A stretch of DNA of 64,000 bases. Origin: Thermodesulfobacteriota bacterium (lineage in GTDB: Bacteria > Desulfobacterota > QYQD01). Shown here in pieces: positions 1,846 to 62,511 of this stretch. Under the pieces are notes generated by a model that worked only from the letters and a program-made list of their open reading frames with translations, was not told the DNA's origin and did no database searches. The stretch spans positions 3,121 to 67,120 of the forward strand of contig JBFMFO010000007.1 in assembly GCA_040754095.1 (NCBI GenBank), read 5' to 3'. Position 1 is the stretch's first letter. Every line of letters begins with the position of its first letter. A program made the translations under genes and the position numbers.

Positions 1846-1912
1846 GTAGGGTGGGCTCCGCCCACCGAAACCACGCTGCGCCGCCGATGATGGTAGGCAA
1901 GGTCCACCCTAC
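1846..1912. repeat. GTAG-family REP doublet (REPIN-like)
   Basis: GTAGGGTGGGCTCCGCCCACC...GGTAGGCAAGGTCCACCCTAC inverted pair. Confidence 0.85.
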
Positions 1913-2043
1913 GGCTGCTTTATGGAAATCATTTAACCTTAAAACCGCAGGCGCCGAAAAGTAACACAACATAATGTCCTTAATCCACCATCAAACTATT
2001 GACAGAGAAACGGGTGATCTCCGATGGCCAGGCAGCCGGGTTC

Positions 2044-2190
2044 AAATCCGAATATCGAATATCGAAATCCGAAACAAATTCAAATGTTCAAATTCCCAAT
2101 GTCCCAAACGACAGCAGCGCTGATTATTTTGGATTTGAATTTTGGTGATTGGATATTGTTTCGAGATTCGTGCTTCGGATTTCGAATTTG
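2044..2190. repeat. AAATCCG/AATATCG heptamer-array inverted repeat element
   Basis: AAATCCGAATATCGAATATCGAAATCCGAAAC ... GTTTCGAGATTCGTGCTTCGGATTTCGAATTT. About nine copies in the window. Confidence 0.85.
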
Positions 2191-2346
2191 AAATAATGCT
2201 GCACAGCAACCATAGTGTGTTTACGGTCAGGAGCTAACTCGTACGAAAATAGGCAGTGGATTTAGGATGTACATTTCTGTTGTCATCCGCATTTGTTTTG
2301 TGATAAGAGACCGTCGCAGGAAAGGGGGTGAAAGTTGGTCAGTCAT

Positions 2347-2411
2347 GTAGGGTGGGCTCCGCCCACCAAAACTACAACGCCGTCAACGATGGTGGGCCAT
2401 GCCCACCCTAC
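2347..2411. repeat. GTAG-family REP doublet
   Basis: GTAGGGTGGGCTCCGCCCACC...GGTGGGCCATGCCCACCCTAC. Confidence 0.85.
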
Positions 2412-2541
2412 GGCTGCTGTCAGAAGGCTTTTAGCTACAAGGACACAAAGGGCACAGAAAAAAAATAATTGTAAAAATTTCCTGGTGTCTCCGTGCCTTT
2501 GTGGCGAACAAACAAAAACGGATAAAGGAGAAGGGAAAGAT

Positions 2542-3975
2542 ATGAAGAAAGGTCTAATTATTTTAGCTACAGCCCTGTTTGTGGCCGCCATGGCGCTCCC
2601 GGCCATGGCCGTGGATGTAAGCATCAGCGGTTACTACCAGGTGCGGGGTTTCTATCAGAGCAATGCCGACCGGGGTACGATAACCCCATGGGATAATCCC
2701 ACGCCCGGTGATATACCGACCATCGGCGCTACAGACTTCAGTTACGGCAGCCCGGAGGCCTGGTGGGATCATTTCCTGTGCATCGAGCCGGTGTTCAAGA
2801 TAACCGACAACCTGAAACTCCATACCGCCATCGGCATTTTTAACAACCAGATGTGGGGAAGCAGTAAGACCAGCGGTGCTTGTTCCTATGCCGGTGAGGT
2901 AGGAGTGGACGCCTTTGGCGCTGACGCTACCAACATCAGTTGGGATGCCGCCTATATGGAATGGGCCACCCCGAAAGGGACACTTATGGTGGGCCGCATG
3001 GCCGGCAACTACATCTATTTTACGGGCTGGGCCAACACCGAGATGTGCCTGGACCGCATCGAATATACCTCGCCGCTGTGGAACGGCTTCGGCCTGAACG
3101 CCTTCATGGAGAAACGGCAGGAAAACAGCACCACCTCCGGCAACAACGCTGCAGATGAGGACATCGACCGCTATTCGCTGGTTCTCAGCTATGCCCAGCC
3201 CTGCTACTCCATCGGCGCGGGCATTAACTACGTCCGTGACCGGAGCGGGTCTGCCACCGGCACTACCTGGAAGGCTGATCAGTATGACTACGTCTTAGGC
3301 CTGACGGCCAATGATCCGACAAACACTTGGTTCTTCGAAGGCGAACTCATGATCAACGACGGCGACTATACAGATTACTACGGCACCACGCAGGACATCG
3401 ACCGGGGTGGCTGGGGTTACTATGTCAACCTTGGCATGAAGAAGGATGCCCTCACGGTCGGTGTGGCCACGGCCTTCACCTCCGGCGATGACAACGCCAG
3501 TGACAGCGACTATGACGTGGGTCCGGCCTCCGGCCTGGACTTCCAGCCGCTTTACATTGTCTATGGTCCATACGGCAACATCCTGAATTCCTCGCTCATG
3601 GATACGACGAGGAAGGCCGGCTATTCCAATGTCACTAAGTTTGGCACCCCGGAAATTGACGGTGGTGCAAACGATACCGCAACCGGTTCACAGGTCTATT
3701 GGTTCTATGCCGACTATCAGGTCAACCCCCAGTTGGCCGTACATGGCGCCCTGGGCGTGGCTTATGCGGACAAGATCAGCAACAGCCTCTATCAGGACGA
3801 TGAGTTCGGCACCGAGTTTGACCTTGGACTGAAGTACCAGCTTATGAGCAATCTGGCCTATGAGCTGCACTTCGGCTACCTGTGGACGGGCGACTTCTTC
3901 AAGGGTGCGGCGGCTGATAACTACACCACTGATGATGTCTATCAGATCGACCACAGCCTGACGCTGAGTTTCTAG
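2542..3975 (+). CDS. outer-membrane beta-barrel porin (deltaproteobacterial type)
   Basis: Signal peptide MKKGLIILATALFVAAMALPAMA, then VDVSISGYYQVRG. Alternating aromatic beta-strands, GTEFDLGLKYQL motif and C-terminal Phe (LTLSF). Confidence 0.85.
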   Translation: MKKGLIILATALFVAAMALPAMAVDVSISGYYQVRGFYQSNADRGTITPWDNPTPGDIPTIGATDFSYGSPEAWWDHFLCIEPVFKITDNLKLHTAIGIFNNQMWGSSKTSGACSYAGEVGVDAFGADATNISWDAAYMEWATPKGTLMVGRMAGNYIYFTGWANTEMCLDRIEYTSPLWNGFGLNAFMEKRQENSTTSGNNAADEDIDRYSLVLSYAQPCYSIGAGINYVRDRSGSATGTTWKADQYDYVLGLTANDPTNTWFFEGELMINDGDYTDYYGTTQDIDRGGWGYYVNLGMKKDALTVGVATAFTSGDDNASDSDYDVGPASGLDFQPLYIVYGPYGNILNSSLMDTTRKAGYSNVTKFGTPEIDGGANDTATGSQVYWFYADYQVNPQLAVHGALGVAYADKISNSLYQDDEFGTEFDLGLKYQLMSNLAYELHFGYLWTGDFFKGAAADNYTTDDVYQIDHSLTLSF

Positions 3976-4022
3976 GAAAATCCCCCCATCCCCCCTTTAT
4001 CAAAGGGGGGTTAAGGGGATTT
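3976..4022. repeat. CCCCCTTTnnnAAAGGGGG palindromic element, intergenic copy; may act as a terminator
   Basis: AAAATCCCCCCATCCCCCCTTTATCAAAGGGGGGTTAAGGGGATTT immediately after the porin stop. Confidence 0.8.
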
Positions 4023-4028
4023 AGCCAT

Positions 4029-4095
4029 GTAGGGTGGGCTCCGCCCACCAAAACTACGCTATGCCGCCAATGATGGTGGGCAAAGCCCGCCCTAC
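4029..4095. repeat. GTAG-family REP doublet
   Basis: GTAGGGTGGGCTCCGCCCACC...GGTGGGCAAAGCCCGCCCTAC. Confidence 0.85.
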
Positions 4096-4302
4096 GTCTG
4101 AGTTTCTAGGAAGACAGAAGTCAGGAGTCAGAAGACAGAATAGGAATTTTTGCCGCAGAGCGCGCGGAGAACGCAGAGAAAAAAATGAGAATCTGGAAAT
4201 CAAGAAATCAGGAATAAAAGATCTTTTCATGAGTTCCTGAGTTCCAAATTTTCTTCTTCTTTGCGTTCTTTGCGTCTTTGCGGTAAAATTTTTATAACGA
4301 CC

Positions 4303-4632
4303 ATGTCAAAGCGTCTTTATATAGACCCGAAGGAATGCAAGGCCTGCGGCGCATGTGAGGAGATATGCCCGGAGGTCTTCAGGGTTGATGAAAATCTCGG
4401 GCATGCCCGGATATTGGATTTAGAGACGTATCCGGAAGACAAGATCAACGAGGCCATTGTTGCCTGCCCGGGCCGCTGTATTGACTGGGATGAATCAAAG
4501 GATGACGAATATTTTTGTCAGAAATACCGGGAACCCATCAAGACAAAGCCGCCAGCCTGTCCCCATCCCCTGGATTACTGCCAGTTCAGGTCTTCCTGCC
4601 CGGTGCATTTTTTAGAGAAGGAGAGGGAATAA
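4303..4632 (+). CDS. single-cluster [4Fe-4S]/[3Fe-4S] ferredoxin with a Cys-rich C-terminal extension
   Basis: CKACGACEEICPEVF...ACPGRCI. Extra tail FCQKY...CPHPLDYCQFRSSC. Confidence 0.85.
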   Translation: MSKRLYIDPKECKACGACEEICPEVFRVDENLGHARILDLETYPEDKINEAIVACPGRCIDWDESKDDEYFCQKYREPIKTKPPACPHPLDYCQFRSSCPVHFLEKERE

Positions 4633-4647
4633 AACCACAGAGATGGA

Positions 4648-4808
4648 AAATTCGAAATCCGAAGCACGAAACTCGAAACAAACTCAAATGACCAAATGAG
4701 AGCACTGACCAAAACGAAAAATCGAAGGAGTTGTTGATGGACGTTTCGAACATTCGATATTTGGATTTCGGATTTGTTTCGGATTTCGTATTTCGATATT
4801 CGGATTTG
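4648..4808. repeat. AAATCCG heptamer-array element (reverse orientation of the 21388 copy)
   Basis: Near-identical reverse complement of 21388-21548. Confidence 0.85.
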
Positions 4809-4840
4809 GTTGGAGCTTTGCCGCTCTGTGTTCTCTGTGG

Positions 4841-5299
4841 TTAATCCTCACCCACGCCGGTCCCGAATTTTTTCCTCAATTGCCGGTCCGCATCTATTAT
4901 TTGCCTTACATCATCACCGGTTATCTCCCAGGAATACTTTGCCTTCGCATCGCGCTTCAGACGTATGCGGAGTTTGCTGTTAGCCTTGGATTGTTTTCCG
5001 TCAGGTTTGGCTATTTCACTTGAAAATCCCCCTGTATCCCCCTTTTCCAAAGGGGGGATCGATGGGGACCCGTCTTCCCCCAAATGGGGATTTTGGCTTT
5101 CCCCCTTTCCCAAAGGGGAACTTAACATATCCCCCCCTTTACTAAAGGGGGGCAAGGGGGGATTATTTTCATCGGCCTTCGCTGGCGGCCCTGCAATAGG
5201 CCCATCCCTATCGTCTGAAGGGCTGCAACCAAGGTAGGCCAACGCTAAGAAAACAACTAAAGTTATATGTAACAATAATCTCAACATATTCCTGTCCAT
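4841..5299 (-). CDS. hypothetical lipoprotein with an in-frame palindromic repeat insertion
   Basis: Lipobox AYLGC. Compact C-terminal domain KLRIRLKRDAKAKYSWEITGDDV. The middle is encoded by the palindrome array at 5021-5171. Confidence 0.7.
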   Translation of the reverse strand: MDRNMLRLLLHITLVVFLALAYLGCSPSDDRDGPIAGPPAKADENNPPLPPFSKGGDMLSSPLGKGESQNPHLGEDGSPSIPPLEKGDTGGFSSEIAKPDGKQSKANSKLRIRLKRDAKAKYSWEITGDDVRQIIDADRQLRKKFGTGVGED

Positions 5300-5458
5300 C
5301 AATCCTCGTCTCTTATCGTAAAATACGCCGGTAAGCTAAAATAACAATTTCTTATTGGCAAAAAGGGAAGTTAGGGCTATCTTGACCGGCAACGAGCGGG
5401 TAATGGATTCCGTAGCCTGCTCCGCACTTGATACGGGGACAAGTACGGAATGACAGAC

Positions 5459-5524
5459 GTAGGGTGGGCTTTGCCCACCGTTATTGCGGCATAGCGTAGT
5501 TCTGGTGGGCGGAGCCCACCCTAC
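5459..5524. repeat. GTAG-family REP doublet
   Basis: GTAGGGTGGGCTTTGCCCACC...GGTGGGCGGAGCCCACCCTAC. Confidence 0.85.
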
Positions 5525-5566
5525 ATAGCTGACTGCTGAAAGCTGAAAAAAGGAGGTTGATACCGC

Positions 5567-7321
5567 GTGAACATCCTCTTTTATCTTCTCGTTAGTCTTG
5601 TCGCATTTTTTCTGGCTTACAGGTTCTATGCCGGACGCATTGAACGCATTCTTGGCGCCGGCGATGAAAATGAGGCGCCAGCAGTTACCTATTATAATGG
5701 CATAGACTATGTGCCTGCAAAATCTTCCGTTGTATTCTCCCATCATTTCGCCTCCATAGCCGGGGCCGGCCCTGTTATCGGCCCGGTAGTGGCCTTAGTT
5801 TATGGTTTTGCCCCGGCCTGGGTGTGGATCGTGGCCGGTACCGTTTTCTTCGGCGCCGTGCATGACTATACGGCCCTCTTTGTCAGTATGCGCGAAAAGG
5901 GGCGATCTATGGCGGAAGTAGCCCGCATATCCATGGGTAAGGCCGGTTTTGTGCTGTTTATTCTTTTTACCCTTACTATGGTCTTCCTGGTGACCGGCGC
6001 CTTTCTCAGACTCACGGCCACGGCCTTGACCTCAGTGGTTGACCTTGATGTTATTGGGTTGGATAAAGACCAGACCATTCTGCGCACGGTGACGGATGCA
6101 GGAACAGGGGCGGTGCAAGGTGCTATTGGGGGGATTGCCTCTACTTCAGTTATCGTTATTACCCTTATGGCCCCTGTAATCGGGTATCTGCTTTATAAGA
6201 AAAAGGTTAAAACGAGTCTGGCCGCTCTACTGGCCTCTTCCGTATGCCTTTTTTCCGTGCTGACAGGCTTTAAATATCCTTTGAGCCTTTCGCCTGACCA
6301 CTGGATGCTCATCCTTTCCTTTTATGCCCTGTTGGCCGCCGGAATCCCGGTCTGGATCGTGCTTCAGCCACGGGACTACATTAACTCATTCATCCTCTAT
6401 GCCGGGATCGTGCTTCTTACCGCGGCTATCGCCATAGGAGGGTTTTCAGGCCTGGCGGTCGGTGCGCCGTTAATAAACGTGGAGACGGGCGCAGCAAAAC
6501 TTGGTTTGATGTGGCCGGTTCTTTTCATCACCGTGGCCTGCGGGGCCATATCCGGGTTTCATGCCCTGGTGTGCGGCGGCACCACTTCCAAACAGTGCGC
6601 CTCTGAGAGTGACGCTAAAAAGATAGGCTATGGCGCTATGCTGCTGGAGGGGCTTCTGGCGGTTATTGTCCTGGTGGTGGTAGCCAGCAGCCTGACCCAT
6701 AGTGATTATTTACGCATCGTCTTCCCGGATGACCCCGCCGCGCGCAGCAACCCCGTGCTGGCCTTTGCCCTGGCCACCGGCCGGATCATGCATGGTTCTC
6801 TAAACATGCCGGTTTATCTGGGGACTATTTTCGGTATCCTCCTGGTAGAAGGATTCCTGGCCACTACCCTGGATACGGCGGTGCGGTTGAACCGCTATCT
6901 TTTCGAGGAGTTATGGGGGGTTATATTCAAGCAAGTCCCCCGGCTTTTAAGGTCGTATCTATTTAATGCCGGGTTGTCCGTGGTCATAATGTACGCCCTG
7001 GCCTATAAACAGGCGTTTTTTATCCTGTGGCCGGTTTTTGGCACGGCCAACCAGCTCCTGGCCGGGCTGACGCTTATAGCGGTCAGTATCTGGTTTATGC
7101 GTCAGGGTACAAAAGTCGGCCTTATCACCCTGATCCCGGCCTCATTCATGATGATTACCACCATCTTTTCGCTTTTTTATCTTTTAGTTAAGAAGGACGG
7201 TTACCTGGCCACAGGAAACTATGTGCTGGCCCTTGCCGATCTTTGTCTTATAGCGCTGGCCATAGGCGTGGTATTTGTGGCCCTAAGGACAATTAGGAAT
7301 GGGTTACGGGTTCAGTTATGA
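5567..7321 (+). CDS. cstA: carbon starvation protein A (peptide/pyruvate transporter)
   Basis: GIDYVPA, HHFASIAGAGPVIGP, GAVHDY, ITVACGAISGFH and LDTAVRL motifs. Multiple TM helices. AGGAGG RBS. Confidence 0.95.
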   Translation: MNILFYLLVSLVAFFLAYRFYAGRIERILGAGDENEAPAVTYYNGIDYVPAKSSVVFSHHFASIAGAGPVIGPVVALVYGFAPAWVWIVAGTVFFGAVHDYTALFVSMREKGRSMAEVARISMGKAGFVLFILFTLTMVFLVTGAFLRLTATALTSVVDLDVIGLDKDQTILRTVTDAGTGAVQGAIGGIASTSVIVITLMAPVIGYLLYKKKVKTSLAALLASSVCLFSVLTGFKYPLSLSPDHWMLILSFYALLAAGIPVWIVLQPRDYINSFILYAGIVLLTAAIAIGGFSGLAVGAPLINVETGAAKLGLMWPVLFITVACGAISGFHALVCGGTTSKQCASESDAKKIGYGAMLLEGLLAVIVLVVVASSLTHSDYLRIVFPDDPAARSNPVLAFALATGRIMHGSLNMPVYLGTIFGILLVEGFLATTLDTAVRLNRYLFEELWGVIFKQVPRLLRSYLFNAGLSVVIMYALAYKQAFFILWPVFGTANQLLAGLTLIAVSIWFMRQGTKVGLITLIPASFMMITTIFSLFYLLVKKDGYLATGNYVLALADLCLIALAIGVVFVALRTIRNGLRVQL

Positions 7322-7428
7322 TGGGCGGGGGAAGGCCTGTAAGTGACCGCAAAAGCTTGACACGGCATTAAAAAAAAAGTATTCAGAATCAATACTAAAC
7401 GATCGGCGGTCGGGTATCAGTTTTAGCC

Positions 7429-7495
7429 GTAGGGTGGGCTCCGCCCACCAAAACCACGCTACGCCGCCAATGATGGTGGGCCATGCCCACCCTAC
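7429..7495. repeat. GTAG-family REP doublet
   Basis: GTAGGGTGGGCTCCGCCCACC...GGTGGGCCATGCCCACCCTAC. A second GTAG-REP type (GTAGTCGCAGGCTTAAGCCTGCG) follows at about 7530. Confidence 0.85.
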
Positions 7496-7585
7496 GTCGC
7501 TTTCAAAAATCTAAATTGCTGTCAGTTCTGTAGTCGCAGGCTTAAGCCTGCGTTCCGTGCGCGAGGACACAAAGGCATAGACAAA

Positions 7586-8812
7586 ATGGCCATTTCTAGA
7601 AAAAAGAAAAAAGTTTTATCCCTTTGTGCCTTTGTGTCTTTGTGGCTGAGTATCCTATCTTTTATCCCTCATTTTTCTTCCTCTCTTAGTTACGCCCAAG
7701 CCGGACCTTTTCCAAAGGACAAGATAGCCTATGTAGGCCAGATTACACAGGACGAAGAAGGTAAATCTATCTCCTATCCGGCCTATGTCTATGTGGACCC
7801 TGTTAAGCACGAGATTTATATTATTGAAGGCCGGGGCCGCATTTTGATCTACAATGCCGGTTTTTTCCCTTTATTTACATTAGATAAGAACTACGGCATT
7901 GAGAGCCCGCAGGGGGTGATGATAGACGCCCGCGGCTATCTATGGGTAGCGCAGGGGACGGGGCCGAATAACCGGCGCGGCCGTATCTCGCTCTTTGACC
8001 CTTGTCTTAAATGGATGCGGGACATATATTTTAGCGGGTTTATAGGGGCGGAGGAATTTATCCCGTATCGATTGGCTGAAAATAGCCGCGGGGAGATATT
8101 TGTCATCGGCACTTACAGCCCGGCAGTCGTCATCCTGGACAGTTTCGGTAATTTTCAGGGAACTTTTTTTCAGGAGGAAGAGGGAGAAGACCAGAAGAAG
8201 AGAGTGGCGGTTAATGATGTCCTGATCGGCCCGGACGACCGCTTATATCTGTTAAGTGAAGAGACCAGCCATGTCTATGTCTATGACGCCGACCGTAATT
8301 TTCTCTTTAAGTTCGGCCAGAAGGGCGGCAGCACGGGAAAAATGAGCCGGCCGCAGGGCATCGGGCTCGACAAACGGACCGGGATTTTTTTTATCGTTGA
8401 TTACATGCGCCATGTGGTGACGGCTTATGACCGCAAAGGCGGGTTTATATTTGAATTTGGCGGCCTGGGATGGGGAGAGGGATGGCTGCAATATCCCAAG
8501 GACATCACCGTAGATGAAACCGGCCGGGTTTTTATAGCCGATCTTTTTAATAACCGTGTGCAGGTGTTACAGGTTATAGCACAGGTTTTACCGGTCGCGC
8601 CTGAGGTCGTGCCTCAGGCAGATTCGCCCGGGCGAACAGATTCGGCGGGTCAAGAAAAAATGGGAGAGGGAGAGAAGGCGGAGCCGGCAGGGCCGGAAGG
8701 GGTCGAGGCCTCCGGAGAACAGGTTAAGGCACCGGAGCCGGCCGCAGCCGTAGAAAGTAAGGGCGTAACATCCATACCGCCGGTGCCGATAAGGGAGACA
8801 GGGCCAAAATAA
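7586..8812 (+). CDS. exported NHL-repeat (six-bladed beta-propeller) protein
   Basis: Repeats such as FGQKGGSTGKMSRPQGIGLD and FGGLGWGEGWLQYPKDITVDETGRVFIADLFNNRVQVL. Hydrophobic N-terminus. Start codon uncertain. Confidence 0.88.
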   Translation: MAISRKKKKVLSLCAFVSLWLSILSFIPHFSSSLSYAQAGPFPKDKIAYVGQITQDEEGKSISYPAYVYVDPVKHEIYIIEGRGRILIYNAGFFPLFTLDKNYGIESPQGVMIDARGYLWVAQGTGPNNRRGRISLFDPCLKWMRDIYFSGFIGAEEFIPYRLAENSRGEIFVIGTYSPAVVILDSFGNFQGTFFQEEEGEDQKKRVAVNDVLIGPDDRLYLLSEETSHVYVYDADRNFLFKFGQKGGSTGKMSRPQGIGLDKRTGIFFIVDYMRHVVTAYDRKGGFIFEFGGLGWGEGWLQYPKDITVDETGRVFIADLFNNRVQVLQVIAQVLPVAPEVVPQADSPGRTDSAGQEKMGEGEKAEPAGPEGVEASGEQVKAPEPAAAVESKGVTSIPPVPIRETGPK

Positions 8813-8888
8813 GAAAAAAAGTAACAGGTTAGGTTTCTGAAACGCTATTGGCACAAAATGCGCTAGCTTCCCAGATACAGGGGGATTC

Positions 8889-9084
8889 AAATTCGAAATT
8901 CGAAGCACGAATCTCGAAACAATTTCGAATGCTCAAAATTGAAGCTCCCCGCTGCTTGCAGCGGGGAATGCGCTCGCTATGCATGTTCAAATTATCAAAA
9001 CGAATCGGCTCCGCTGCGGTTTTGAACATTGAGACATTAGGAATTTGAATTTGCTTCGGATTTCGATATTCGGATTTCGGATTT
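8889..9084. repeat. AAATCCG heptamer-array element carrying a short nested PATE
   Basis: AAATTCGAAATTCGAAGCACGAATCTCGAAAC...TTCGGATTTCGATATTCGGATTTCGGATTT. Confidence 0.8.
8940..8986 (-). mobile_element. internally deleted copy of the IS200/IS605-like palindromic element (PATE)
   Basis: Minus strand TTGA|ACATGCATAGCGAGCGCATTCCCCGCTGCAAGCAGCGGGGAGCTTCA. Same ends as the 22197 and 33050 copies but only one hairpin. Confidence 0.7.
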
Positions 9085-9156
9085 AGCTCCGGTTCCGAAG
9101 TAATCGGCGTTTTCGGGTTCAATAGCCGTTTCAAAGAACTAATCTGTTATAAAAAA

Positions 9157-9184
9157 TAATGTTATGGTCACAATATGCCGATAA
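9157..9184 (+). promoter_or_regulatory. possible sigma-28 promoter of the cytochrome pair
   Basis: TAATGTTA...GCCGATAA. Perfect -10; the -35 is imperfect with a spacer 1 nt long. Ends 44 bp before the ATG. Confidence 0.45.
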
Positions 9185-9228
9185 AATAAATGGTAAGGTT
9201 CAAACTCTGAGGGACTCTATCTAATCAG

Positions 9229-10560
9229 ATGAAAGATACCTTAATCACACTTGCAATATGTATCTTTTTGACCACAAATCCAGTATATGCCGGGACTTAT
9301 CTTGATTCAGCCCATGGGAATACCTCTTACGGTGTAAACCGAAGCAGCACGTCCGGATATACAAAAGGAAGTTGCGGCCATTGCCATGAGATGCACGCCA
9401 GTATCGAGGGGAGTGAACCGGCCCCGGTGGGCGGTTCACCCTCAAAGTTTACCCTATTTTATACCAACCATACCAGCCAGACGGATAATTTCTGTTTTAA
9501 ATGCCACGACAATACTATTACCGTGGCGGCAACTGCCATAATGAACAGGAGCTACAGTTTCCGTGCCGGCGGCTGGACCAGTGATACCCTGAACGACGTC
9601 CTTGAAGCTTTTACAACCGGCGGGCCTACCAGCATACTTTCCGTACACAATCTTGACGATATAAGTACTTTCATCACCAGCAAGGCGTGGGGCTATACGG
9701 CCGACTCCAACCCCTGCTGCGCCTGTCACAACCCGCACGCCGTCCAGGGAGACCCGGCGAACTCAGGGAGTACTGCCAAGAGCGCCGCGACCCGCGGGTA
9801 TCCGGTCGCCCGGCCAAGCCAGCATGCCACCCTCTTTACCTGGGCACTGTGGGGGGATGGAGCGGGTGAAAAGATGAGCGACTACACTGCCTCCTACCAA
9901 GCTCCTTATCGCTTTGGTTCTACCACAACGTATGAGCCGGATGGTTCTTCTACCACTAATGGGTCCAATTTGACCGATTTCAATACATTTTGCACCGATT
10001 GTCACAACGCCACCAACACGATTTACAGCACTGCCTTGGGGCGGAATCTAAAGACTATAGACTGGGATAACGAGAAACACGGCAAAGGGAATGCCGATGA
10101 GGCAGTTAGTTTAAACAACCCATACAATGCTACTTTAGGCAAGGTGCTTGCCTGTACAGATTGCCACGAACCTCACGGTTCAGCGCATAAGGTCTTGATA
10201 AGAAATGAAGTTAATGGTGGGACGCTGGGCGGCGTCATCAACACTATTACATCGACGGATTGTACACCTTCATATTCAGATACAAACAAGGAAATAGCAT
10301 ACCTCTGTGACCGGTGCCACAACGACGACTACGAGTTCAGTACGTCCTGCCAGCAAGATCATTATTATTATATCCATCACAGTTCTTCGGCAACGGATGA
10401 GCCTTATAACGACATGGGTTGTGATAGCTGTCATACCTCTGGAATGGGTTCAGGCTGTACGAGTACCCGGAGCGCTATTAATTGCAACTGTTGCCATTAT
10501 CACGGGTCAGTTGTAAGTAGCGGGATTGATTATGCGCCTACCACCAGGCGTACATTTTGA
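9229..10560 (+). CDS. exported octaheme c-type cytochrome
   Basis: Signal peptide and eight CXXCH motifs: CGHCH, CFKCH, CCACH, CTDCH, CTDCH, CDRCH, CDSCH, CNCCH. Ser/Thr-rich. Confidence 0.92.
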   Translation: MKDTLITLAICIFLTTNPVYAGTYLDSAHGNTSYGVNRSSTSGYTKGSCGHCHEMHASIEGSEPAPVGGSPSKFTLFYTNHTSQTDNFCFKCHDNTITVAATAIMNRSYSFRAGGWTSDTLNDVLEAFTTGGPTSILSVHNLDDISTFITSKAWGYTADSNPCCACHNPHAVQGDPANSGSTAKSAATRGYPVARPSQHATLFTWALWGDGAGEKMSDYTASYQAPYRFGSTTTYEPDGSSTTNGSNLTDFNTFCTDCHNATNTIYSTALGRNLKTIDWDNEKHGKGNADEAVSLNNPYNATLGKVLACTDCHEPHGSAHKVLIRNEVNGGTLGGVINTITSTDCTPSYSDTNKEIAYLCDRCHNDDYEFSTSCQQDHYYYIHHSSSATDEPYNDMGCDSCHTSGMGSGCTSTRSAINCNCCHYHGSVVSSGIDYAPTTRRTF

Positions 10561-10586
10561 AGCTATTTCATATAAAAGTAGATAAT

Positions 10587-11705
10587 ATGAAAAAAATACC
10601 CTTAATATCATTCACCATAGCATACGTTATCTTGATAATAAGTATGTCCGGCCTTTGCCACGCCAAGGTCACGGGCGTTTGTTACAACTGTCATACCATG
10701 CACAATAGCCAGGGCGGCGCGGCCATGGCCCAGGAATATTCTTCCGGGAGCGGCGGGTTGACAGGGGATACCACTCCCAATCCGTGTCTGCTGTCCTATG
10801 ACTGCGTTGGTTGTCATTTTTCCAGTACGGCCAATACCATTGTAAGCGTAGGTTCAAGCAATATCCCCATAGTCTTGAACAGTACTGCCCCTGCCTCCCC
10901 CCTTGCGGGTGGTAATTTTTACTGGTTGGTGAACACGGGCGATAAATATGGTCACAATGTGTATGGAATTAAGACTCAGGAAGGCTCGCCGATGGATGCA
11001 CCGCCGGGTTTCACGGCCGGTGCCGGCACGCCCAGTGGCTACGGAAGCGGGCCGGCCTCATGGGCCACCCAGCTTAACTGCGCCGGGGTGTATGGATGTC
11101 ACGGCGATCGTACTCAAGGCGCGACGGCTGCCACTGTGGTTGAGGCCATGAAGGGGGGCCATCATGCTGATGACAGCGCCATAGATGGCACCAGTACAGG
11201 CAAAAGTTACCGGTTTCTAAGGGGCGTAAACGGTGTAGAGTTAAATGCTGCCGGTTATAAATGGGAACAGACGGCCGATTCCACCCATCACAATGGATAC
11301 AAGGGCGGAGCCACACCCGGAACCACGACGGACGGCATCAGTTACTTATGCGGCAGTTGCCACGGCAACTTTCACGGGCACGCAAATCTCGGAGGTTCCA
11401 CACAGGTTGGTTCTTCTTCGCCGTGGTTCAGGCACCCTACGGATTTTGCATTTAGTGGGGTAGAAGGCGGCTACGCCGGATCAGAATACGATGATTATAC
11501 AAGTTACTCGACTACAACGCCGGTAGCACTGTCCACGCCGTCCACATCAACTTCGACCGTTGACAGCACAAGCATGGTTATATGCCTTTCCTGCCACCGT
11601 GCCCATGGATCGCCGAATTACAAGATGATCCGCTGGGATTATAAAAGCGCCACCCTTTCTACGGCCCTGAGCGGCTGTAACGTCTGCCACACGTCGAAAA
11701 ATTAA
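10587..11705 (+). CDS. exported hexaheme c-type cytochrome, OmcS-like
   Basis: Signal peptide. Motifs CYNCHTMHNSQGG, CVGCH, GGNFYW, GHNV, CAGVYGCH (CX5CH), CGSCH, RHP, CLSCHRAH and CNVCH are collinear with Geobacter OmcS as I recall it. Confidence 0.88.
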   Translation: MKKIPLISFTIAYVILIISMSGLCHAKVTGVCYNCHTMHNSQGGAAMAQEYSSGSGGLTGDTTPNPCLLSYDCVGCHFSSTANTIVSVGSSNIPIVLNSTAPASPLAGGNFYWLVNTGDKYGHNVYGIKTQEGSPMDAPPGFTAGAGTPSGYGSGPASWATQLNCAGVYGCHGDRTQGATAATVVEAMKGGHHADDSAIDGTSTGKSYRFLRGVNGVELNAAGYKWEQTADSTHHNGYKGGATPGTTTDGISYLCGSCHGNFHGHANLGGSTQVGSSSPWFRHPTDFAFSGVEGGYAGSEYDDYTSYSTTTPVALSTPSTSTSTVDSTSMVICLSCHRAHGSPNYKMIRWDYKSATLSTALSGCNVCHTSKN

Positions 11706-11754
11706 CGGCCGGCTTTTCTCACCGCAAAGACGCAAAGGACGCAAAAGATGCAAG

Positions 11755-11885
11755 AAATCCGAAGCACAAAATTCGAAATACGAAACAAATTCAAATGACC
11801 AAAATTCTAAACAATTATGTTTCGGTCATTTGAGCATTTTGATTTCGGATTTGTTTCGGGTTTCGATATTAGGATTTCGGATTTA
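11755..11885. repeat. AAATCCG heptamer-array element
   Basis: AAATCCGAAGCACAAAATTCGAAATACGAAAC...GTTTCGATATTAGGATTTCGGATTT. Confidence 0.8.
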
Positions 11886-11908
11886 TAGCTTTGCGCCTTT
11901 GCAGCTAT

Positions 11909-11976
11909 GTAGGGTGGGCTCCGCCCACCAGACCTATACGCTATGCCGCAATAACGGTGGGCAAAGCCCACCCTAC
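11909..11976. repeat. GTAG-family REP doublet
   Basis: GTAGGGTGGGCTCCGCCCACC...GGTGGGCAAAGCCCACCCTAC. Confidence 0.85.
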
Positions 11977-12104
11977 GTCTAACCCGTCCGCGGGCAGCCA
12001 TCAGCTTTCAGCAACCCCACCGCTGGCCTTCAGTGCATTTTGTTGCGAAACCGGCCATTTTCTGATACGTTATCACAACATTCACTGCAAAGGTGCAAAG
12101 TAGG

Positions 12105-48355: not shown

Positions 48356-51178
48356 TTAGAACAAAAATAGTTGGCTTTTTGCCTTGGCAATAATATTATC
48401 CCTAAGCCCTTTACAGAAAGGCACAAGCGCTTCAAACGAAAGTCCCTTATTACTTTTATACAGGCTTTCTGAAAGAATCAGATATTCCCATTTTTGAGGT
48501 TGAGTTATACCTTCTGGTGGCGGCACCAATGACGCCTGTTCACACCAGGCAGTAGCAGCCTGCACCTTGACGGCGACATTAGGGTTGTCAATATCTTTGT
48601 CCGCCTTTGTTTCAACGAGGTATATTTTGTCTGGTGCTTTAACTATAAAGTCAACCTCGTAATTTCTCAATATGCCTGTCTCATCTCTATATGTAATTTT
48701 AAGTTTGTGCCTTCTATCCAACTTCGCAAAGGCAAGTACATCAGCGGAGTTGTTCAGCATCTTCTGCATAAAATCTCTTTCAAATCCCCCACCTTTTGGT
48801 TGATAGCCGTTTTTCGGGTAAATGCTTCTTTCGGTATCAACAGATTTACTTTCTCTCACCATAATGCGCGGGACATCGGACAGCCTTCCCCATGTACCCT
48901 TCTTGACTTCAAATTTATAGCCTGCGATGAGTTTGATAATAGACTTGCTTGTCGTTTCCACAACATGGTCGAAAACAGGCTGATAGTTGAGTACCGGATA
49001 GTTTTCAGGAGAGGAAAAATCTATGGGTTCGCCAAAACAATATTCTGACACATACTCATCAATGGTCTCGGCAATCTGTGCCTGTTTTGCTGAAAGGATC
49101 GATGTCTTTCCCCTTGTAGCCACGGACTTTGACGCCTGTCTTAAGAAAAATGAGTAGTCAAAGTACTCATTATCCAATTTCCAGGCCCTTGTCTTTACTC
49201 CGGTTTGCACGTGAGTTTCCTGAATAATGAGCTTCGAGAGGTATTTTTTTAGTTGATTAAAGTCAACCCGGTATTTAGGAAGGCTTTTAATATCAATCTG
49301 CGAAAGTTCGGGCATCTTTCCTTCATCAAAGACCTGTATGGGCCACGCGATATCAAAAAGAGGAATTCTCTCTGTTACGGCATCGACAGGGATAATATCG
49401 CCGGTTGATGTCTCTTTGCTCGTGTCACCCACTCCGAATACATATCCCTGCTCTCTAAGTTTATTGTAAAATTCTATAAATCTCGGGTGCTCTACGACAA
49501 AAAGAAAATCAAAGGAATTGGAGGGATTTTTCTTTCTTTTTATTTGGTGATAAGCTTCTACTTTAGCGTCCTGTAATTCCGGATATTCATAAGACGGAAA
49601 CATCAGCCTCAACCCTCTGCCGACTATCTGCTCAAGCAATAAGTCGGCCTCTGTTGCCCTAAGAACTACTGTAACGCATATATTGTTTTTATCAAAACCT
49701 TCTCTTAGCATAAGAACGGAAATAACAATCCTTAACGGATCATCATCTATATCTATTCTGTCGAGATTCTTTCTCGCCGTTTCAATTTCCTTACCAGGGA
49801 GGTCGGAATGGATAACGAGGACCTTGGCGTCATCGTAATACTGACTGTTTTCATCCGTAAGCCTCGCAAAATGCTCCGCTGTGAGGTCAGCAACCGTTGT
49901 GTCTTCACACAGGACCATCATAACGGGCTTTTTGGTTATGCCCTTCTTTTTAAATTCAACAGCAAGCTGCTCCAGCTTTTTCCTGCCGATGTCAAGCAGC
50001 AATTTCTGTCCTGTTGAAAGGGCTTTTATTTCACCCCTCTTATGCCCGCCTTCTGCCTCATACCTTTCAGCCCTGAACTCAAGCTCTTCTAAAGATTCCC
50101 CGGCAATAGCCTGTCGCTGCTCAAGGAAAAGCTGTTTTACCAGCATGTTCTGCATGGCGCTTAACAGGTCGTAGTCATAGATAATATGCGGGAAATATTC
50201 CCTCTTTTCTGCGCTTCCATAAAATGGAGTAGCCGAGTAATCAATCTGTAAAAATACACCCTGTTCTTTTTTGTGGTTTTCCTTCAACCCCGCATAAAGC
50301 ACATTCATAAACTGTCGCCAGACAAGTTCCTCGCCTTTTGCAGACTTCTTCCCATGCACATGGTGGGCCTCATCATTCATTATTACAAGGTCGGGATACT
50401 CAGACAGAAAATCGGCTATTACCTGACCCCTCGGCATTTCTTCAACATCAGCCCCTGTAAATTTATCCCATAAGCTGGATACAGAGGACTTAAGCCTGAA
50501 CTGTTGCCAGTTCGTTATAAAGACAAAGGGACCGTCAGGTGGTGTTGTGTTAGGCTTAACATCATCAGGCTCAAGAATATCCATATGAAATCTATCACGC
50601 CAGTGTGACCCTTCCGGCATGAACAGGGAGCGTTTATAATCTGATGTCTCAGGCAATCTATTACCTGTTTTTAAATCCCTTTTCCCTTTAAAGGAATCGA
50701 GAAGCCTGTTCAAGACCTCATGTCCAGGGGTCACAACCAGAAAACGGTAAGAATAATTTCCAGGCCGCTCATCATTAAGTCTATTAAAATACTGCCATAC
50801 AAGAAGGGCAGCCAGTACCCATGTCTTCCCGGAGCCGGTTGCCATCTTCAGGGCATATTTAGAGAAGGGGATTGTCTCTACTTCCTGTTTCAATGGAAGG
50901 TGTTGATAAATAGACTCCGGGGCTACCCTCTCAAAGACCTCCTGCAGGGTCTTGGCTTGAAGGATTTCATGGCAGTATACGACGGTCTCAATCGCCCTCT
51001 GCTGGCACAGGTGAAACCTTTCCGTGGCATCTTCATCCCTTTTAAACCAGTAATTGAAAAGCTCCAAGGTGGTCTGAGTAACCCCAGGCCAGCCCTGCTC
51101 TACCCATGCATGGACTTCACCTTCCAAGGCATTGGCGAGGTACATTTGGGAGAAGGGTTGATTATTCTTTTTTGCCAT
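48356..51178 (-). CDS. Type III-like restriction subunit (SF2 helicase plus PD-(D/E)xK nuclease)
   Basis: MATGSGKT, NDEAHH, SATP, LREGFD, EQIVGRGLR. C-terminal YEVDFIV...YLVETK. Confidence 0.9.
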   Translation of the reverse strand: MAKKNNQPFSQMYLANALEGEVHAWVEQGWPGVTQTTLELFNYWFKRDEDATERFHLCQQRAIETVVYCHEILQAKTLQEVFERVAPESIYQHLPLKQEVETIPFSKYALKMATGSGKTWVLAALLVWQYFNRLNDERPGNYSYRFLVVTPGHEVLNRLLDSFKGKRDLKTGNRLPETSDYKRSLFMPEGSHWRDRFHMDILEPDDVKPNTTPPDGPFVFITNWQQFRLKSSVSSLWDKFTGADVEEMPRGQVIADFLSEYPDLVIMNDEAHHVHGKKSAKGEELVWRQFMNVLYAGLKENHKKEQGVFLQIDYSATPFYGSAEKREYFPHIIYDYDLLSAMQNMLVKQLFLEQRQAIAGESLEELEFRAERYEAEGGHKRGEIKALSTGQKLLLDIGRKKLEQLAVEFKKKGITKKPVMMVLCEDTTVADLTAEHFARLTDENSQYYDDAKVLVIHSDLPGKEIETARKNLDRIDIDDDPLRIVISVLMLREGFDKNNICVTVVLRATEADLLLEQIVGRGLRLMFPSYEYPELQDAKVEAYHQIKRKKNPSNSFDFLFVVEHPRFIEFYNKLREQGYVFGVGDTSKETSTGDIIPVDAVTERIPLFDIAWPIQVFDEGKMPELSQIDIKSLPKYRVDFNQLKKYLSKLIIQETHVQTGVKTRAWKLDNEYFDYSFFLRQASKSVATRGKTSILSAKQAQIAETIDEYVSEYCFGEPIDFSSPENYPVLNYQPVFDHVVETTSKSIIKLIAGYKFEVKKGTWGRLSDVPRIMVRESKSVDTERSIYPKNGYQPKGGGFERDFMQKMLNNSADVLAFAKLDRRHKLKITYRDETGILRNYEVDFIVKAPDKIYLVETKADKDIDNPNVAVKVQAATAWCEQASLVPPPEGITQPQKWEYLILSESLYKSNKGLSFEALVPFCKGLRDNIIAKAKSQLFLF

Positions 51179-51184
51179 TGAGAC

Positions 51185-51553
51185 TTATCTATTCCGCTTT
51201 ACAGCCAATTTAAATCTGCCCTTCGGCGTTTGCTCTAACAGATTACGTTCCCTAATCCTTGCCATAACGAGATCATTAAGCAATGCTCTATCAAAATCGG
51301 TCATATTCACAAAGGAAAGTTTACTTTTAACCGCATCTAAAGAATATTTAAGCAACAGCTTAGCAAACGCCTCGTCAATAAAAGAAGGGGATGCTATTGA
51401 AAGATTTGAAAAATCAACAATAATTCTATCTTTCGCTTTCCAAAAAAGCTCTATAACTTTCCGAATTTTTTTGCCATGCTCCCTGGAAACAGTATCGACC
51501 CCTGCTATTTTTTTAATATCTATATAGGTCTCTCTTAATCCCGCAGCAAACAT
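51185..51553 (-). CDS. STAS-like domain protein (DUF4325-like)
   Basis: VSREHGKKIR, IIVDFSNLSIASPSFIDEAFAKL. Confidence 0.85.
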   Translation of the reverse strand: MFAAGLRETYIDIKKIAGVDTVSREHGKKIRKVIELFWKAKDRIIVDFSNLSIASPSFIDEAFAKLLLKYSLDAVKSKLSFVNMTDFDRALLNDLVMARIRERNLLEQTPKGRFKLAVKRNR

Positions 51554-51567
51554 ATTGCTTCACCTCT

Positions 51568-52413
51568 TCAAAATATATAGTCTTCTTCGCCTGTTAAAAA
51601 GTATAAACTCTTTTTGTTAGTATTTATTTCTAAGTTGACTATAGTGCCTTCAAAAGCTCCCGCCATATTATACTCCGCAACTCTGTTACTATAGAAATCA
51701 ACCTTTCCCCTACCGGAAATAATAGTAAGGACGCCCTTGTTGATTTTCAAAAACTTGCGGATATGCGTTAGACCAAAACCGGCACTCTGAGGACGGCTTG
51801 TAACCCCTTCTTCAACAGATAGTTTTATCGCCTTGATGTCACTTGTAATTTTATACTTCTTTTTTAAAGTTGATAAAATTCCCACTCCAAAATCTGTTAT
51901 ACAAAGCCTTATTAGCATCTTATTTGGATAATATTGTGCACATACAAAACACCCGCTATTTGACCTGCTATGGTCAAATACATTGATTAAAAGTTCTTGT
52001 AAACTCATCTTTAGAGAGTCTTTCATCCCCTTAGACAAACTCATCTTAGACTCAATTAAAATTATAAGTTTTTCAATATAAAGAGGACGTAATGCCATTA
52101 ACTGGGTTAGTTCCACACTGGTATCTTTATGAATATTCTTCCCGTTAATATGAAAAAATGAGTTAAATCCTATCTGAGATAGGTAATCTTTTAGCTTTCT
52201 ATCTTTTGGGGGAATATATGCTATTTTTCTATTCTTTGTTCGCAAACAGCCCTGAATAGCCCCTGCTATGATAGTTATTGCAAATGGATCAATGAATGTG
52301 GTTTTTTCAAAAACAAAAGTCGATATATCTCTAGTTTTTTGTACATTGGCACAGTTTTTAATTATTGTATCTGCATAAGCTATGGTGGAAAGTTTTGGGA
52401 AAATTACCTGCAT
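51568..52413 (-). CDS. GHKL/HATPase kinase-like protein with a degenerate N-terminal STAS-like region
   Basis: N-box ELLINVFDHS, G1 ITDFGVGI, G2 GVTSRPQSAGFGL. N-terminal TFIDPF...YLSQIGF. AGGAGG RBS. Confidence 0.85.
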   Translation of the reverse strand: MQVIFPKLSTIAYADTIIKNCANVQKTRDISTFVFEKTTFIDPFAITIIAGAIQGCLRTKNRKIAYIPPKDRKLKDYLSQIGFNSFFHINGKNIHKDTSVELTQLMALRPLYIEKLIILIESKMSLSKGMKDSLKMSLQELLINVFDHSRSNSGCFVCAQYYPNKMLIRLCITDFGVGILSTLKKKYKITSDIKAIKLSVEEGVTSRPQSAGFGLTHIRKFLKINKGVLTIISGRGKVDFYSNRVAEYNMAGAFEGTIVNLEINTNKKSLYFLTGEEDYIF

Positions 52414-52478
52414 TTAAACCTCATACCTCCTGTTATTGCAGGATTATGGTCTATTCTGCAATAACACTATTTATTATT

Positions 52479-61506: not shown

Positions 61507-62511
61507 GTGAAAACGGCATCCCGCTGGTTGATAATACCTGCGCTATGGACTTATTTCACATGGGTAAGTCCCGGTGCAATGGCTTTAGATACCAATTGTG
61601 ACAACTGCCATGCCTCTTACAAGGCCGTAGTTATGAAAGGCACACAGGATCAAGGTGCAGGGCATTGTACCCGGTGCCACACGGCCATACAGACAGGCAA
61701 TACCGGCAAGGCCGGATCAACCCCTTATGTTTATCATAATACCGGGACAGACTTAGCCGGCGGCAATTTCTATCATGTCGGCCTCCACGGCAACCGTCAT
61801 GGCCATAACGTGGATGGGTTTACGGATATAGGGCCTGATACTATTAATGCGCCGGGACTAAACAACCCCTCCTTAAATTTCACTGGCGTCCGGCTTACAT
61901 GCGCCGGTAAATATGGCTGCCATGGCGACCGTACCAATATCTCTCCACGCGAAGCCATGAAGGGGGCCCACCATGCCTACAACCCTGCCAAACCGTCCGA
62001 TGGAAAGACGGTAGCGACAAGTTACCGGTTTCTGTTTGGAGTTACCGGAAGGGAAATGAACGAAGACGGCTACAAATGGGAATACAAGCCTGCCGCTGAT
62101 AAGCATAACGAATACCAAGGATCTGATAACTGGCGTGATCCAAAGAGCATAAGTTATTTATGCAGTCAATGCCATGGCAGCGATGCCCTGGGCGAGAGTA
62201 GTGGCAACTTTCACGGTGCGGCCGGCACCGGGGGCAAGGGCCCCTGGTTAAGACACCCGACAGACGTCCCCATCCCGGACGGGGAATTCTCCGGTTATAC
62301 GGAATATAACCCGGTTGTGCCCGTTGCCAGACTGGATCTCGATCGTGCAAGAAATCCGTCAGAAGTGAACGTCTCGTCAGGCAATGAGGTGGTGATGTGC
62401 CTGTCCTGTCACCGTGCCCACGGTTCGCCCTATCCGAGTATCCTCCGCTTCGCTTACGACGAAAACATGTCCGCTTCAGGCTCTTGTCGCACCTGTCACC
62501 GCAATCACTAA
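61507..62511 (+). CDS. second OmcS-like exported hexaheme cytochrome c
   Basis: CDNCH, CTRCH, GGNFY, GHNV, CAGKYGCH, SYRFL, CSQCH, RHPTD, CLSCHRAHGS, CRTCH. Clear paralog of 10587-11705. Confidence 0.88.
   Translation: MKTASRWLIIPALWTYFTWVSPGAMALDTNCDNCHASYKAVVMKGTQDQGAGHCTRCHTAIQTGNTGKAGSTPYVYHNTGTDLAGGNFYHVGLHGNRHGHNVDGFTDIGPDTINAPGLNNPSLNFTGVRLTCAGKYGCHGDRTNISPREAMKGAHHAYNPAKPSDGKTVATSYRFLFGVTGREMNEDGYKWEYKPAADKHNEYQGSDNWRDPKSISYLCSQCHGSDALGESSGNFHGAAGTGGKGPWLRHPTDVPIPDGEFSGYTEYNPVVPVARLDLDRARNPSEVNVSSGNEVVMCLSCHRAHGSPYPSILRFAYDENMSASGSCRTCHRNH

Follow-up and report, generated by a model that had tools for sequence, protein, structure and literature searches.

We analysed a stretch of 64,000 nucleotides (hereafter the window) from a Thermodesulfobacteriota bacterium (assembly GCA_040754095.1, contig JBFMFO010000007.1, positions 3,121 to 67,120 of the forward strand), in which the gene for an NHL-repeat beta-propeller is followed by genes for an octaheme cytochrome c and for a hexaheme cytochrome c that resembles OmcS, the filament cytochrome of Geobacter (Table 1). 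An earlier note, made from the letters of the sequence, had placed an NHL gene, an octaheme gene and a six-heme cytochrome gene here, and the three corresponding plus-strand open reading frames (ORFs) lie exactly at those positions. The start codon of the hexaheme gene overlaps the octaheme stop codon by 4 nt, and the two genes are therefore almost certainly co-translated. All three proteins begin with a hydrophobic, signal-like N-terminus, as read by eye. Here we ask what these proteins are related to, in what company their genes travel, and whether they could form part of an apparatus for carrying electrons out of or into the cell.

The hexaheme protein can be linked to a known system. A phmmer search with its 382 amino acids (aa) against all chains of the Protein Data Bank (PDB) retrieves OmcS (6ef8/6nef) at E 4.7e-10, pairing query residues 39-375 with chain residues 6-361, and a profile built from 26 family sequences reaches OmcS at E 3e-13. 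The kinship proposed in the earlier note thus proves significant in single-sequence and profile searches. In the alignments CHTMHNS.GGA.M, GG.F.W, YR.L and CLSCHRAH match column for column, and to this extent the motif-by-motif likeness stands; GHN and RHP, which had also been counted toward it, occur in both proteins but are offset in the alignment. These alignments indicate true homology between the 382-aa protein and OmcS, with a motif likeness above chance. Pfam and NCBIfam searches with both cytochromes returned only generic Paired_CXXCH and c7/c3-type matches. An AlphaFold2 model of the hexaheme monomer from a 26-row alignment (mean predicted local distance difference test score (pLDDT) 45.7; predicted template-modelling score 0.40) is too poor for a fold search, and a complex prediction with two mature copies and 4 hemes scored 0.00 and gave no answer, each subunit needing six hemes.

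The name hexaheme is right as to the number of heme sites and needs amending as to their kind. Only five are canonical CxxCH motifs; the remaining one, third along the chain, is C175-x5-C181-H182 (CAGVYGCH). All 26 aligned relatives have C175, C181 and H182, and a CX5CH motif is found in 111 of the 122 hexaheme-like ORFs of at least 300 aa in the 79 related loci described below. The motif aligns to the third CxxCH of OmcS and, in a profile-profile alignment, to a canonical CxxCH of the octaheme family. Because it is both invariant and aligned to canonical sites in these two families, we infer that CX5CH is a non-canonical heme site and binds heme. The six predicted heme attachment sites then follow the same order as in OmcS.

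The N-terminal motif CYNCHTMH carries a second histidine, H49, which aligns to OmcS and is invariant in all 26 aligned sequences, so that the CHTMH histidine is indeed kept, as the earlier note had maintained. The wider CxxCHxxH pattern occurs in 102 of the 122 ORFs, a count that is perhaps slightly high, the whole protein having been scanned. We take the equivalent of H49 in OmcS to be His16 of CHTMH, an inter-subunit heme ligand whose role was reportedly described by Wang and colleagues in 2019. According to excerpts of Filman et al. (2019; PMC6584659), 11 of the 12 histidine ligands of OmcS come from the subunit itself and one, on heme 505, comes from its neighbour. In two same-genus genomes the hexaheme match (G003:C111:226-1338 and G004:C127:9402-10514) contains one in-frame TGA, which could be a sequencing error, a pseudogene mutation or a selenocysteine codon; a SelA gene lies at window positions 55718-57136.

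The octaheme belongs to the same superfamily. Taken alone, it retrieves nothing significant from the PDB with phmmer. A profile of its family (19 sequences) finds OmcS 6ef8 at E 1.1e-5 over chain residues 8-406, nearly the whole chain, and hhalign relates the hexaheme and octaheme families with 98.35% probability (E 1.1e-14, 266 columns). The hhalign alignment pairs the six hexaheme sites, CX5CH against CxxCH included, with the first six octaheme sites, and sets the N-terminal CxxCHxxH motifs of the two families opposite one another, hexaheme H49 against octaheme H56. The octaheme can thus be described as a six-heme OmcS-like core, with CGHCHEMH at its N-terminus, followed at the C-terminus by some 80 aa with two further CxxCH motifs. 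On the strength of these profile comparisons it is a paralogue within the OmcS superfamily, and the idea that it is an unrelated partner or anchor has to be given up. A Protein Atlas search with the octaheme returned only generic multiheme-cytochrome clusters. We also considered and rejected an identification with OmcX, whose relatives have 11-12 hemes according to Skennerton et al. (2017; PMC5539420). Like 12 of its 18 aligned relatives, the octaheme has Phe as its last residue (...RRTF, ...QLF, ...PLF), which recalls an outer-membrane targeting signal, though the protein is not a barrel.

Two metagenome-assembled genomes (MAGs) encode the pair as a single polypeptide. These ORFs (L035:7010-9175 and L036:3285-5447) specify proteins of 721 and 720 aa that are 95.6% identical to each other and have 12 CxxCH motifs plus CX5CH. 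In both, the hexaheme comes first and is joined at the mature N-terminus of the octaheme, whose signal peptide is lost. In an OmcS filament, heme 6 of one subunit lies against heme 1 of the next, and the N-terminal histidine of that next subunit reaches back. The order within the fusions is thus that in which OmcS subunits follow one another in the filament.

The third protein of the module, of 408 aa, matches the Pfam NHL profile (PF01436) at E 4.5e-7 (30 bits, cut-off 20), and the NCBIfam ScyF-like NHL model at E 1.4e-19, below that model's cut-off. From about residue 330 it ends in a low-complexity tail of Pro, Glu and Ala.

The hexaheme family is large: of 7506 candidates, 2990 proteins match at E <= 0.001, and species-representative genomes contain at least 543 relatives, from which we kept 79 loci as a synteny sample. 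NHL genes accompany OmcS-type genes, as the earlier note had it, in 33 of these loci. An octaheme homologue occurs in 22, and NHL and octaheme genes occur together in 4. Cytochromes with 26 and with 16 hemes are each found in 40 of the loci, a YncE-like propeller of 528 aa in 24, a PPIC-type peptidyl-prolyl isomerase (PPIase) in 22, three small lipoproteins in 16-24, and a protein of 782 aa in 15. If we write S for OmcS-like, O for octaheme, N and n for two NHL types, D for the 528-aa propeller, B for the 782-aa putative barrel, L1-L3 for the lipoproteins and P for the PPIase, and count matches spanning at least half of the query, the gene orders seen include L2-L3-P-26-16-S-O, P-26-16-n-S-O, S-S-S-N-D-B and N-S-D-B-L1-L2-L3. 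The pair and the NHL gene of our module sit, in other genomes, within one conserved cluster together with the barrel, lipoprotein, PPIase and giant cytochrome genes. Hexaheme precedes octaheme in 15 of the 79 loci; the reverse is found in one, the close relative L010, which keeps the N-O-S order seen here at 71-82% protein identity. Malonomonas rubra DSM 5091 (L077; Desulfuromonadales) has NHL, lipoprotein, PPIase, 26-heme, 16-heme and NHL genes and three OmcS-like genes in one stretch, which supports, in a relative of Geobacter, the link drawn in the earlier note between the OmcS locus and an NHL gene. Another cultured bacterium with the cluster is Thermodesulfobacterium hydrogeniphilum DSM 14290 (L058/L064). 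For GSU2505, PMC10599522 gave no confirmation of an NHL annotation. Two clusters of the 26-16-n-S... type (L044 and L076) come from MAGs labelled Heimdallarchaeota and Promethearchaeota; these labels are likely due to mis-binned bacterial contigs.

Excerpts of PMC13194489, which summarises Shen et al. (2025), describe the Geobacter osc operon as comprising OmcS-like paralogues, periplasmic cytochromes (OscI, OscJ) and factors for folding (OscH), secretion (OscEFG) and morphology (OscD). In the genus studied here the comparable cluster is split. Its remainder lies about 50 kb downstream of the module, beyond housekeeping genes that fill the interval, and runs from window position 61507 past the window end (64.6-79.3 kb of host contig G000:C7; G000:C7:64627-79255, equivalent to L089:627-15255). 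A second OmcS-like gene, whose 334-aa product is without the N-terminal CxxCHxxH histidine, here faces a run of minus-strand genes, of which that for a second NHL propeller of 319 aa is the most downstream. Further along are genes for cytochromes with 16 hemes (427 aa) and 26 hemes (680 aa), a PPIase (559 aa), three lipoproteins of which L2 is LpoB-like, the 782-aa protein and the YncE-like propeller. With OmcS-like genes, large multihemes and genes of folding and secretion type, the combined set has the content of an osc-type cluster. The DUF2155 lipoprotein-like protein encoded beside it has no homologue in the 79 loci. In G001 and G005, the two same-genus genomes compared, the hexaheme orthologue again lies about 43 kb from a paralogue of the osc-adjacent type on the same contig.

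Table 1. Features of the cytochrome module and of the distal cluster (window positions unless a contig is named)
Feature	Position	Strand	Basis
Palindromic repeat pair (GTAGGGTGGGC...GCCCACCCTAC), upstream of the module	7423..7501		repeat search
NHL-repeat beta-propeller, 408 aa	7586..8812	+	ORF, Pfam NHL
Dispersed repeats in the spacer from NHL to octaheme gene	8888..9085		16-mers common to dozens of contigs
Octaheme cytochrome c, 443 aa, 8 CxxCH	9229..10560	+	ORF, motif count
Hexaheme cytochrome c homologous to OmcS, 382 aa, five CxxCH + CX5CH	10557..11705	+	ORF, TTG start
TTCGGATTTCG-type element and second palindromic pair, downstream of the module	11750..11982		repeat search
OmcS-like paralogue, 334 aa, five CxxCH + CX5CH	61507..62511	+	
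DUF2155 lipoprotein-like protein, 206 aa	62637..63257	-	Pfam DUF2155, E 7.9e-8
Second NHL propeller, 319 aa	63479..64000 (ORF to window-equivalent 64438)	-	Pfam NHL, 64 bits
16-heme, 26-heme, PPIase, three lipoproteins, 782-aa putative barrel, 528-aa propeller (map order)	G000:C7:67571-79255	-	

The 782-aa protein gave no family match. Its AlphaFold2 model from an 11-row alignment has a mean pLDDT of 80.6 and is all-beta, with about 28 long strands and an inserted beta-rich domain at residues ~300-460. The protein ends in ...GRF; of the 13 matching ORFs listed, 12 are full length and have RF, RFW or SF at the C-terminus, and the other, a partial row of 177 aa, has no such ending. The model suggests a large outer-membrane barrel that could sheath a long cytochrome. 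Lying beside the 16- and 26-heme genes, it offers a candidate for the porin-cytochrome conduit that the earlier note had wanted to see, though not one that the Pfam MtrB_PioB profile recognises. In a Foldseek search with the model, TonB-dependent receptors (template-modelling (TM) score ~0.2-0.3) come next after the best PDB match, MtrB.

OmcS-like genes are numerous in this organism, accounting for eight of the 26 ORFs with at least three CxxCH in the genome. In a FastTree phylogeny of 132 sequences, midpoint-rooted and used for groupings only, the module hexaheme groups with hexahemes encoded next to an octaheme and with the middle member of triple tandems from Nitrospirota. The 334-aa paralogue falls in a clade that is without the N-terminal second histidine and corresponds to the first copy of those tandems, and a third paralogue of the host, on contig C22, groups with the third copies. 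Three OmcS-like types recur, one of them without the ligating histidine. Contig C22 also holds two adjoining cytochromes of 307 and 273 aa with 12 CxxCH each (G000:C22:2742-4565), which may be the OmcX-like pair described for SEEP-SRB1 by Skennerton et al. (2017).

The genes next to the module, for CstA on the upstream side and for a radical-SAM protein and RNase E/G on the downstream side, are unrelated to it, and its surroundings are rich in repeats. The 11-mer GTAGGGTGGGC, the core of a palindromic repeat, has 64 copies genome-wide, 10 of them within window positions 1846-11966, where they occur as pairs bracketing single genes or gene blocks; the three-gene module lies between the pairs at 7429/7485 and 11909/11966, which may mark a site to which it moved out of the main cluster. 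The 416-bp spacer between the NHL and cytochrome genes is full of dispersed repeats. From about position 8604, the 3' end of the NHL ORF and the spacer as far as 9085 contain 16-mers that also occur in dozens of other contigs, so part of the low-complexity tail of the NHL protein may be repeat-encoded. One could read all this as the mark of decay, the module being a translocated, repeat-flanked and redundant duplicate that has gone out of use: repeats flank and interrupt it, the genome holds eight paralogues, and octaheme-before-hexaheme is the inverse of the order at 15 other loci. We regard this as very improbable, for none of the three ORFs is disrupted, no heme motif has been lost, four of six same-genus genomes retain orthologues with 81-91% identity, and the gene order is shared with L010.

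In the host genome (2.66 Mb in 62 contigs, 98.96% complete) dsrA is matched at 605 bits, above the cut-off. MAGs labelled Thermodesulfobacteriota or Desulfovibrionales supply the nearest named relatives of the hexaheme protein. Among the sequencing runs listed for positions 7586-11705, two groundwater metagenomes (DNA) may be the source, the others share only small parts, and none is of RNA. Elsewhere in the window, positions 48356-54440 have low GC (0.42-0.44 against ~0.50) and encode a ResIII-type helicase/restriction subunit, a DUF4325 protein and an N6/N4 DNA methylase; this segment resembles an acquired type III restriction-modification island.

Altogether we favor, as somewhat better than an even wager, the view that the products of the three genes are exported and belong to an OmcS-type ('osc-like') extracellular electron-transfer system in a dsrA-carrying host of the sulfite- or sulfate-reducing type. 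The elements of this view differ in strength. Membership of the OmcS superfamily and of an osc-type system is very probable; the chance that a true filament forms we put a little short of even. We envision that the cytochromes would be exported by Sec and have their hemes attached, that the PPIase and the propellers would aid their folding, and that they would leave the cell through the barrel and lipoprotein machinery. Outside, the hexaheme could stack head to tail as OmcS does, H49 ligating heme 5 of the preceding subunit. The natural hexaheme-to-octaheme fusions imply that the octaheme would dock through the same contact of heme 6 with heme 1; there it might be a terminal or adaptor unit, or else a co-polymer. 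Within the barrel, the 16- and 26-heme cytochromes would connect the assembly to the periplasm, allowing electron exchange with a mineral or a partner cell; in a sulfate reducer the flow would probably be inward. A bolder elaboration, which we put forward as speculative and on balance unlikely, is a multi-component wire of specialised OmcS-superfamily subunits instead of a homopolymer. The hexaheme would elongate it and the octaheme would be its partner or end adaptor, joined by the head-to-tail contact that the 14-heme fusions make permanent in some lineages; CX5CH would be a lineage-wide non-canonical form of heme attachment, and the His-less 334-aa paralogue would initiate or terminate the wire, because a subunit without the ligating histidine could not add onto a preceding one.

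The same proteins could instead form a surface complex without any micrometre-long polymer. The hexaheme and octaheme would then combine into a discrete 14-heme unit like the natural fusion, as a heterodimer or short hetero-oligomer, and sit outside a barrel-cytochrome conduit much as MtrC sits on MtrAB, with the NHL protein as scaffold. The single-chain fusions and the recurrent hexaheme-to-octaheme gene order speak for such a unit, as do the large barrel with MtrB as best PDB match in a companion cluster with 16- and 26-heme cytochromes, and the C-terminal region of the hexaheme, which is shorter than that of OmcS. An integral outer-membrane cytochrome complex stabilised by NHL propellers was indeed proposed by Deng et al. 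(2018; PMC5815863, in excerpt). Against it stands the N-terminal CxxCHxxH histidine, which serves the contact between subunits in OmcS, is invariant in the close family and is kept in both hexaheme and octaheme as expected of repeated head-to-tail contacts. The homologous companion genes of Geobacter are moreover reported to serve filament assembly (excerpts of PMC13194489, citing Shen et al. 2025). We consider the surface complex possible, with odds clearly below those of the extracellular system as we picture it.

Another alternative keeps both cytochromes inside the cell envelope, as periplasmic electron carriers or a redox enzyme pair with OmcS ancestry and no role outside the cell. The only export signal visible is of Sec type, and the module is detached here from the barrel and lipoprotein genes. 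In Desulfovibrio ferrophilus, according to PMC9769857, the counterparts by gene order are predicted to be extracellular, yet were not detected in the outer-membrane fraction, and their deletion gave no Fe(III) phenotype. We nevertheless find a periplasmic role decidedly unlikely: elsewhere the pair is contiguous with genes for the outer-membrane barrel, lipoproteins and giant cytochromes, neither a catalytic-type motif such as CxxCK nor an enzyme-family match was found (Pfam, NCBIfam), and the closest solved relative is an extracellular filament.

To the OmcS-type extracellular system that we prefer, a number of observations are unfavorable. Export is indicated only by the Sec-type signal read by eye. 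The similarity to OmcS is distant (42-53 bits), and the stretch between heme motifs 5 and 6 is about 30 residues in the hexaheme against about 70 in OmcS, a shortfall of some 40 residues which means that this part of the OmcS fold is missing. The 26 hexaheme sequences share 14 invariant histidines, more than six bis-His hemes need, and H49 could therefore have a role within its own chain. The natural fusions, and eight OmcS-like paralogues in a genome of 2.66 Mb, are hard to square with a simple homopolymer; a hetero-complex would account for fusions and numerous paralogues no less well than a filament. The match of the 782-aa model to MtrB (6r2q_B), at E 3.8e-10, is weak, with a TM score of only 0.37/0.43, and the MtrB_PioB profile (PF11854) has no match in this 98.96%-complete genome. 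The equation of OscH with the PPIase and of OscEFG with the lipoproteins is tentative. In D. ferrophilus, strains deleted for DFE_0464-0465, 0461-0462 or 0448-0450, apparent equivalents by gene order, still reduced Fe(III) oxide (PMC9769857), and what OmcS filaments themselves do physiologically is under dispute (PMC11077965).

If the proteins do polymerise, wiring of the OmcS type would extend to a dsrA-bearing lineage from groundwater and to the many Nitrospirota, Thermodesulfobacteriota and Aquificota with the same cluster, with consequences for the electron exchange of sulfate reducers with minerals, steel or partner cells. The general idea is not new, since filaments and NHL clusters of this kind are already in print: excerpts of Murali et al. 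(2023; PMC10553843) propose OmcS-like cytochromes as filaments in syntrophic sulfate-reducing bacteria (SRB), those of Deng et al. (2018) report cytochrome/NHL clusters as widespread in sulfur-compound reducers, and the title of Shen et al. (2025), whose findings PMC13194489 summarises, calls the machinery widespread and ancient. The module thus belongs to an already described, widespread type of electron-export cluster. Our literature searches did not find the kinship of octaheme and OmcS, the natural fusion, the prevalence of CX5CH or the His-less type, all of which may stand in Shen et al. (2025) or in supplements. The octaheme kinship and fusion, the CX5CH site, the three OmcS-like types and the large barrel offer concrete constructs for structural work.

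Among known systems, D. ferrophilus IS5 resembles the present host in being a sulfate reducer in which multihemes, large ones included, adjoin NHL genes (DFE_0448-0451 and DFE_0461-0465). Its order cytochrome-cytochrome-NHL-cytochrome-cytochrome is that of 26-16-n-S-O in loci such as L013 and L046, and it is by gene order only that DFE_0464/0465 can be likened to hexaheme and octaheme. As excerpted, the D. ferrophilus papers state no homology to Geobacter cytochromes, whereas the module family matches OmcS. The comparison with MtrCAB (6r2q) concerns the companion 782-aa protein, which models as a very large beta-barrel beside long multihemes with MtrB as its best PDB match, but which differs in its low TM scores, its inserted beta-rich domain, the missing Pfam MtrB_PioB match and the lack of an MtrC-type decaheme.

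With Geobacter sulfurreducens OmcS the hexaheme shares significant full-length similarity, the order of the six sites and the CHTMH, YRxL, RHP and CLSCHRAH motifs; it differs in having CX5CH instead of CxxCH at heme site 3 and a C-terminal segment about 40 residues shorter. The likeness to the Geobacter osc operon is one of gene content only (PPIase, three lipoproteins, 26- and 16-heme cytochromes, propellers). Here, in turn, the cluster includes the 782-aa putative barrel, lies in two parts 50 kb apart and belongs to a host with dsrA, and the hexaheme is paired, in some genomes fused, with an octaheme paralogue, an arrangement not known from Geobacter. The SRB partners of anaerobic methanotrophic archaea (ANME) come close in another way. 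They too have multiple OmcS homologues, for which filaments serving interspecies electron transfer are proposed (PMC10553843), and in SEEP-SRB1 the 26-heme gene adjoins the 16-heme gene in one operon (Skennerton et al. 2017; PMC5539420). In the partner bacteria, which live at methane seeps, the OmcS-like genes lie with OetABI/OmcKL conduits and OmcX, whereas the bacterium described here has an NHL gene and an octaheme paralogue beside its hexaheme and appears to come from groundwater.

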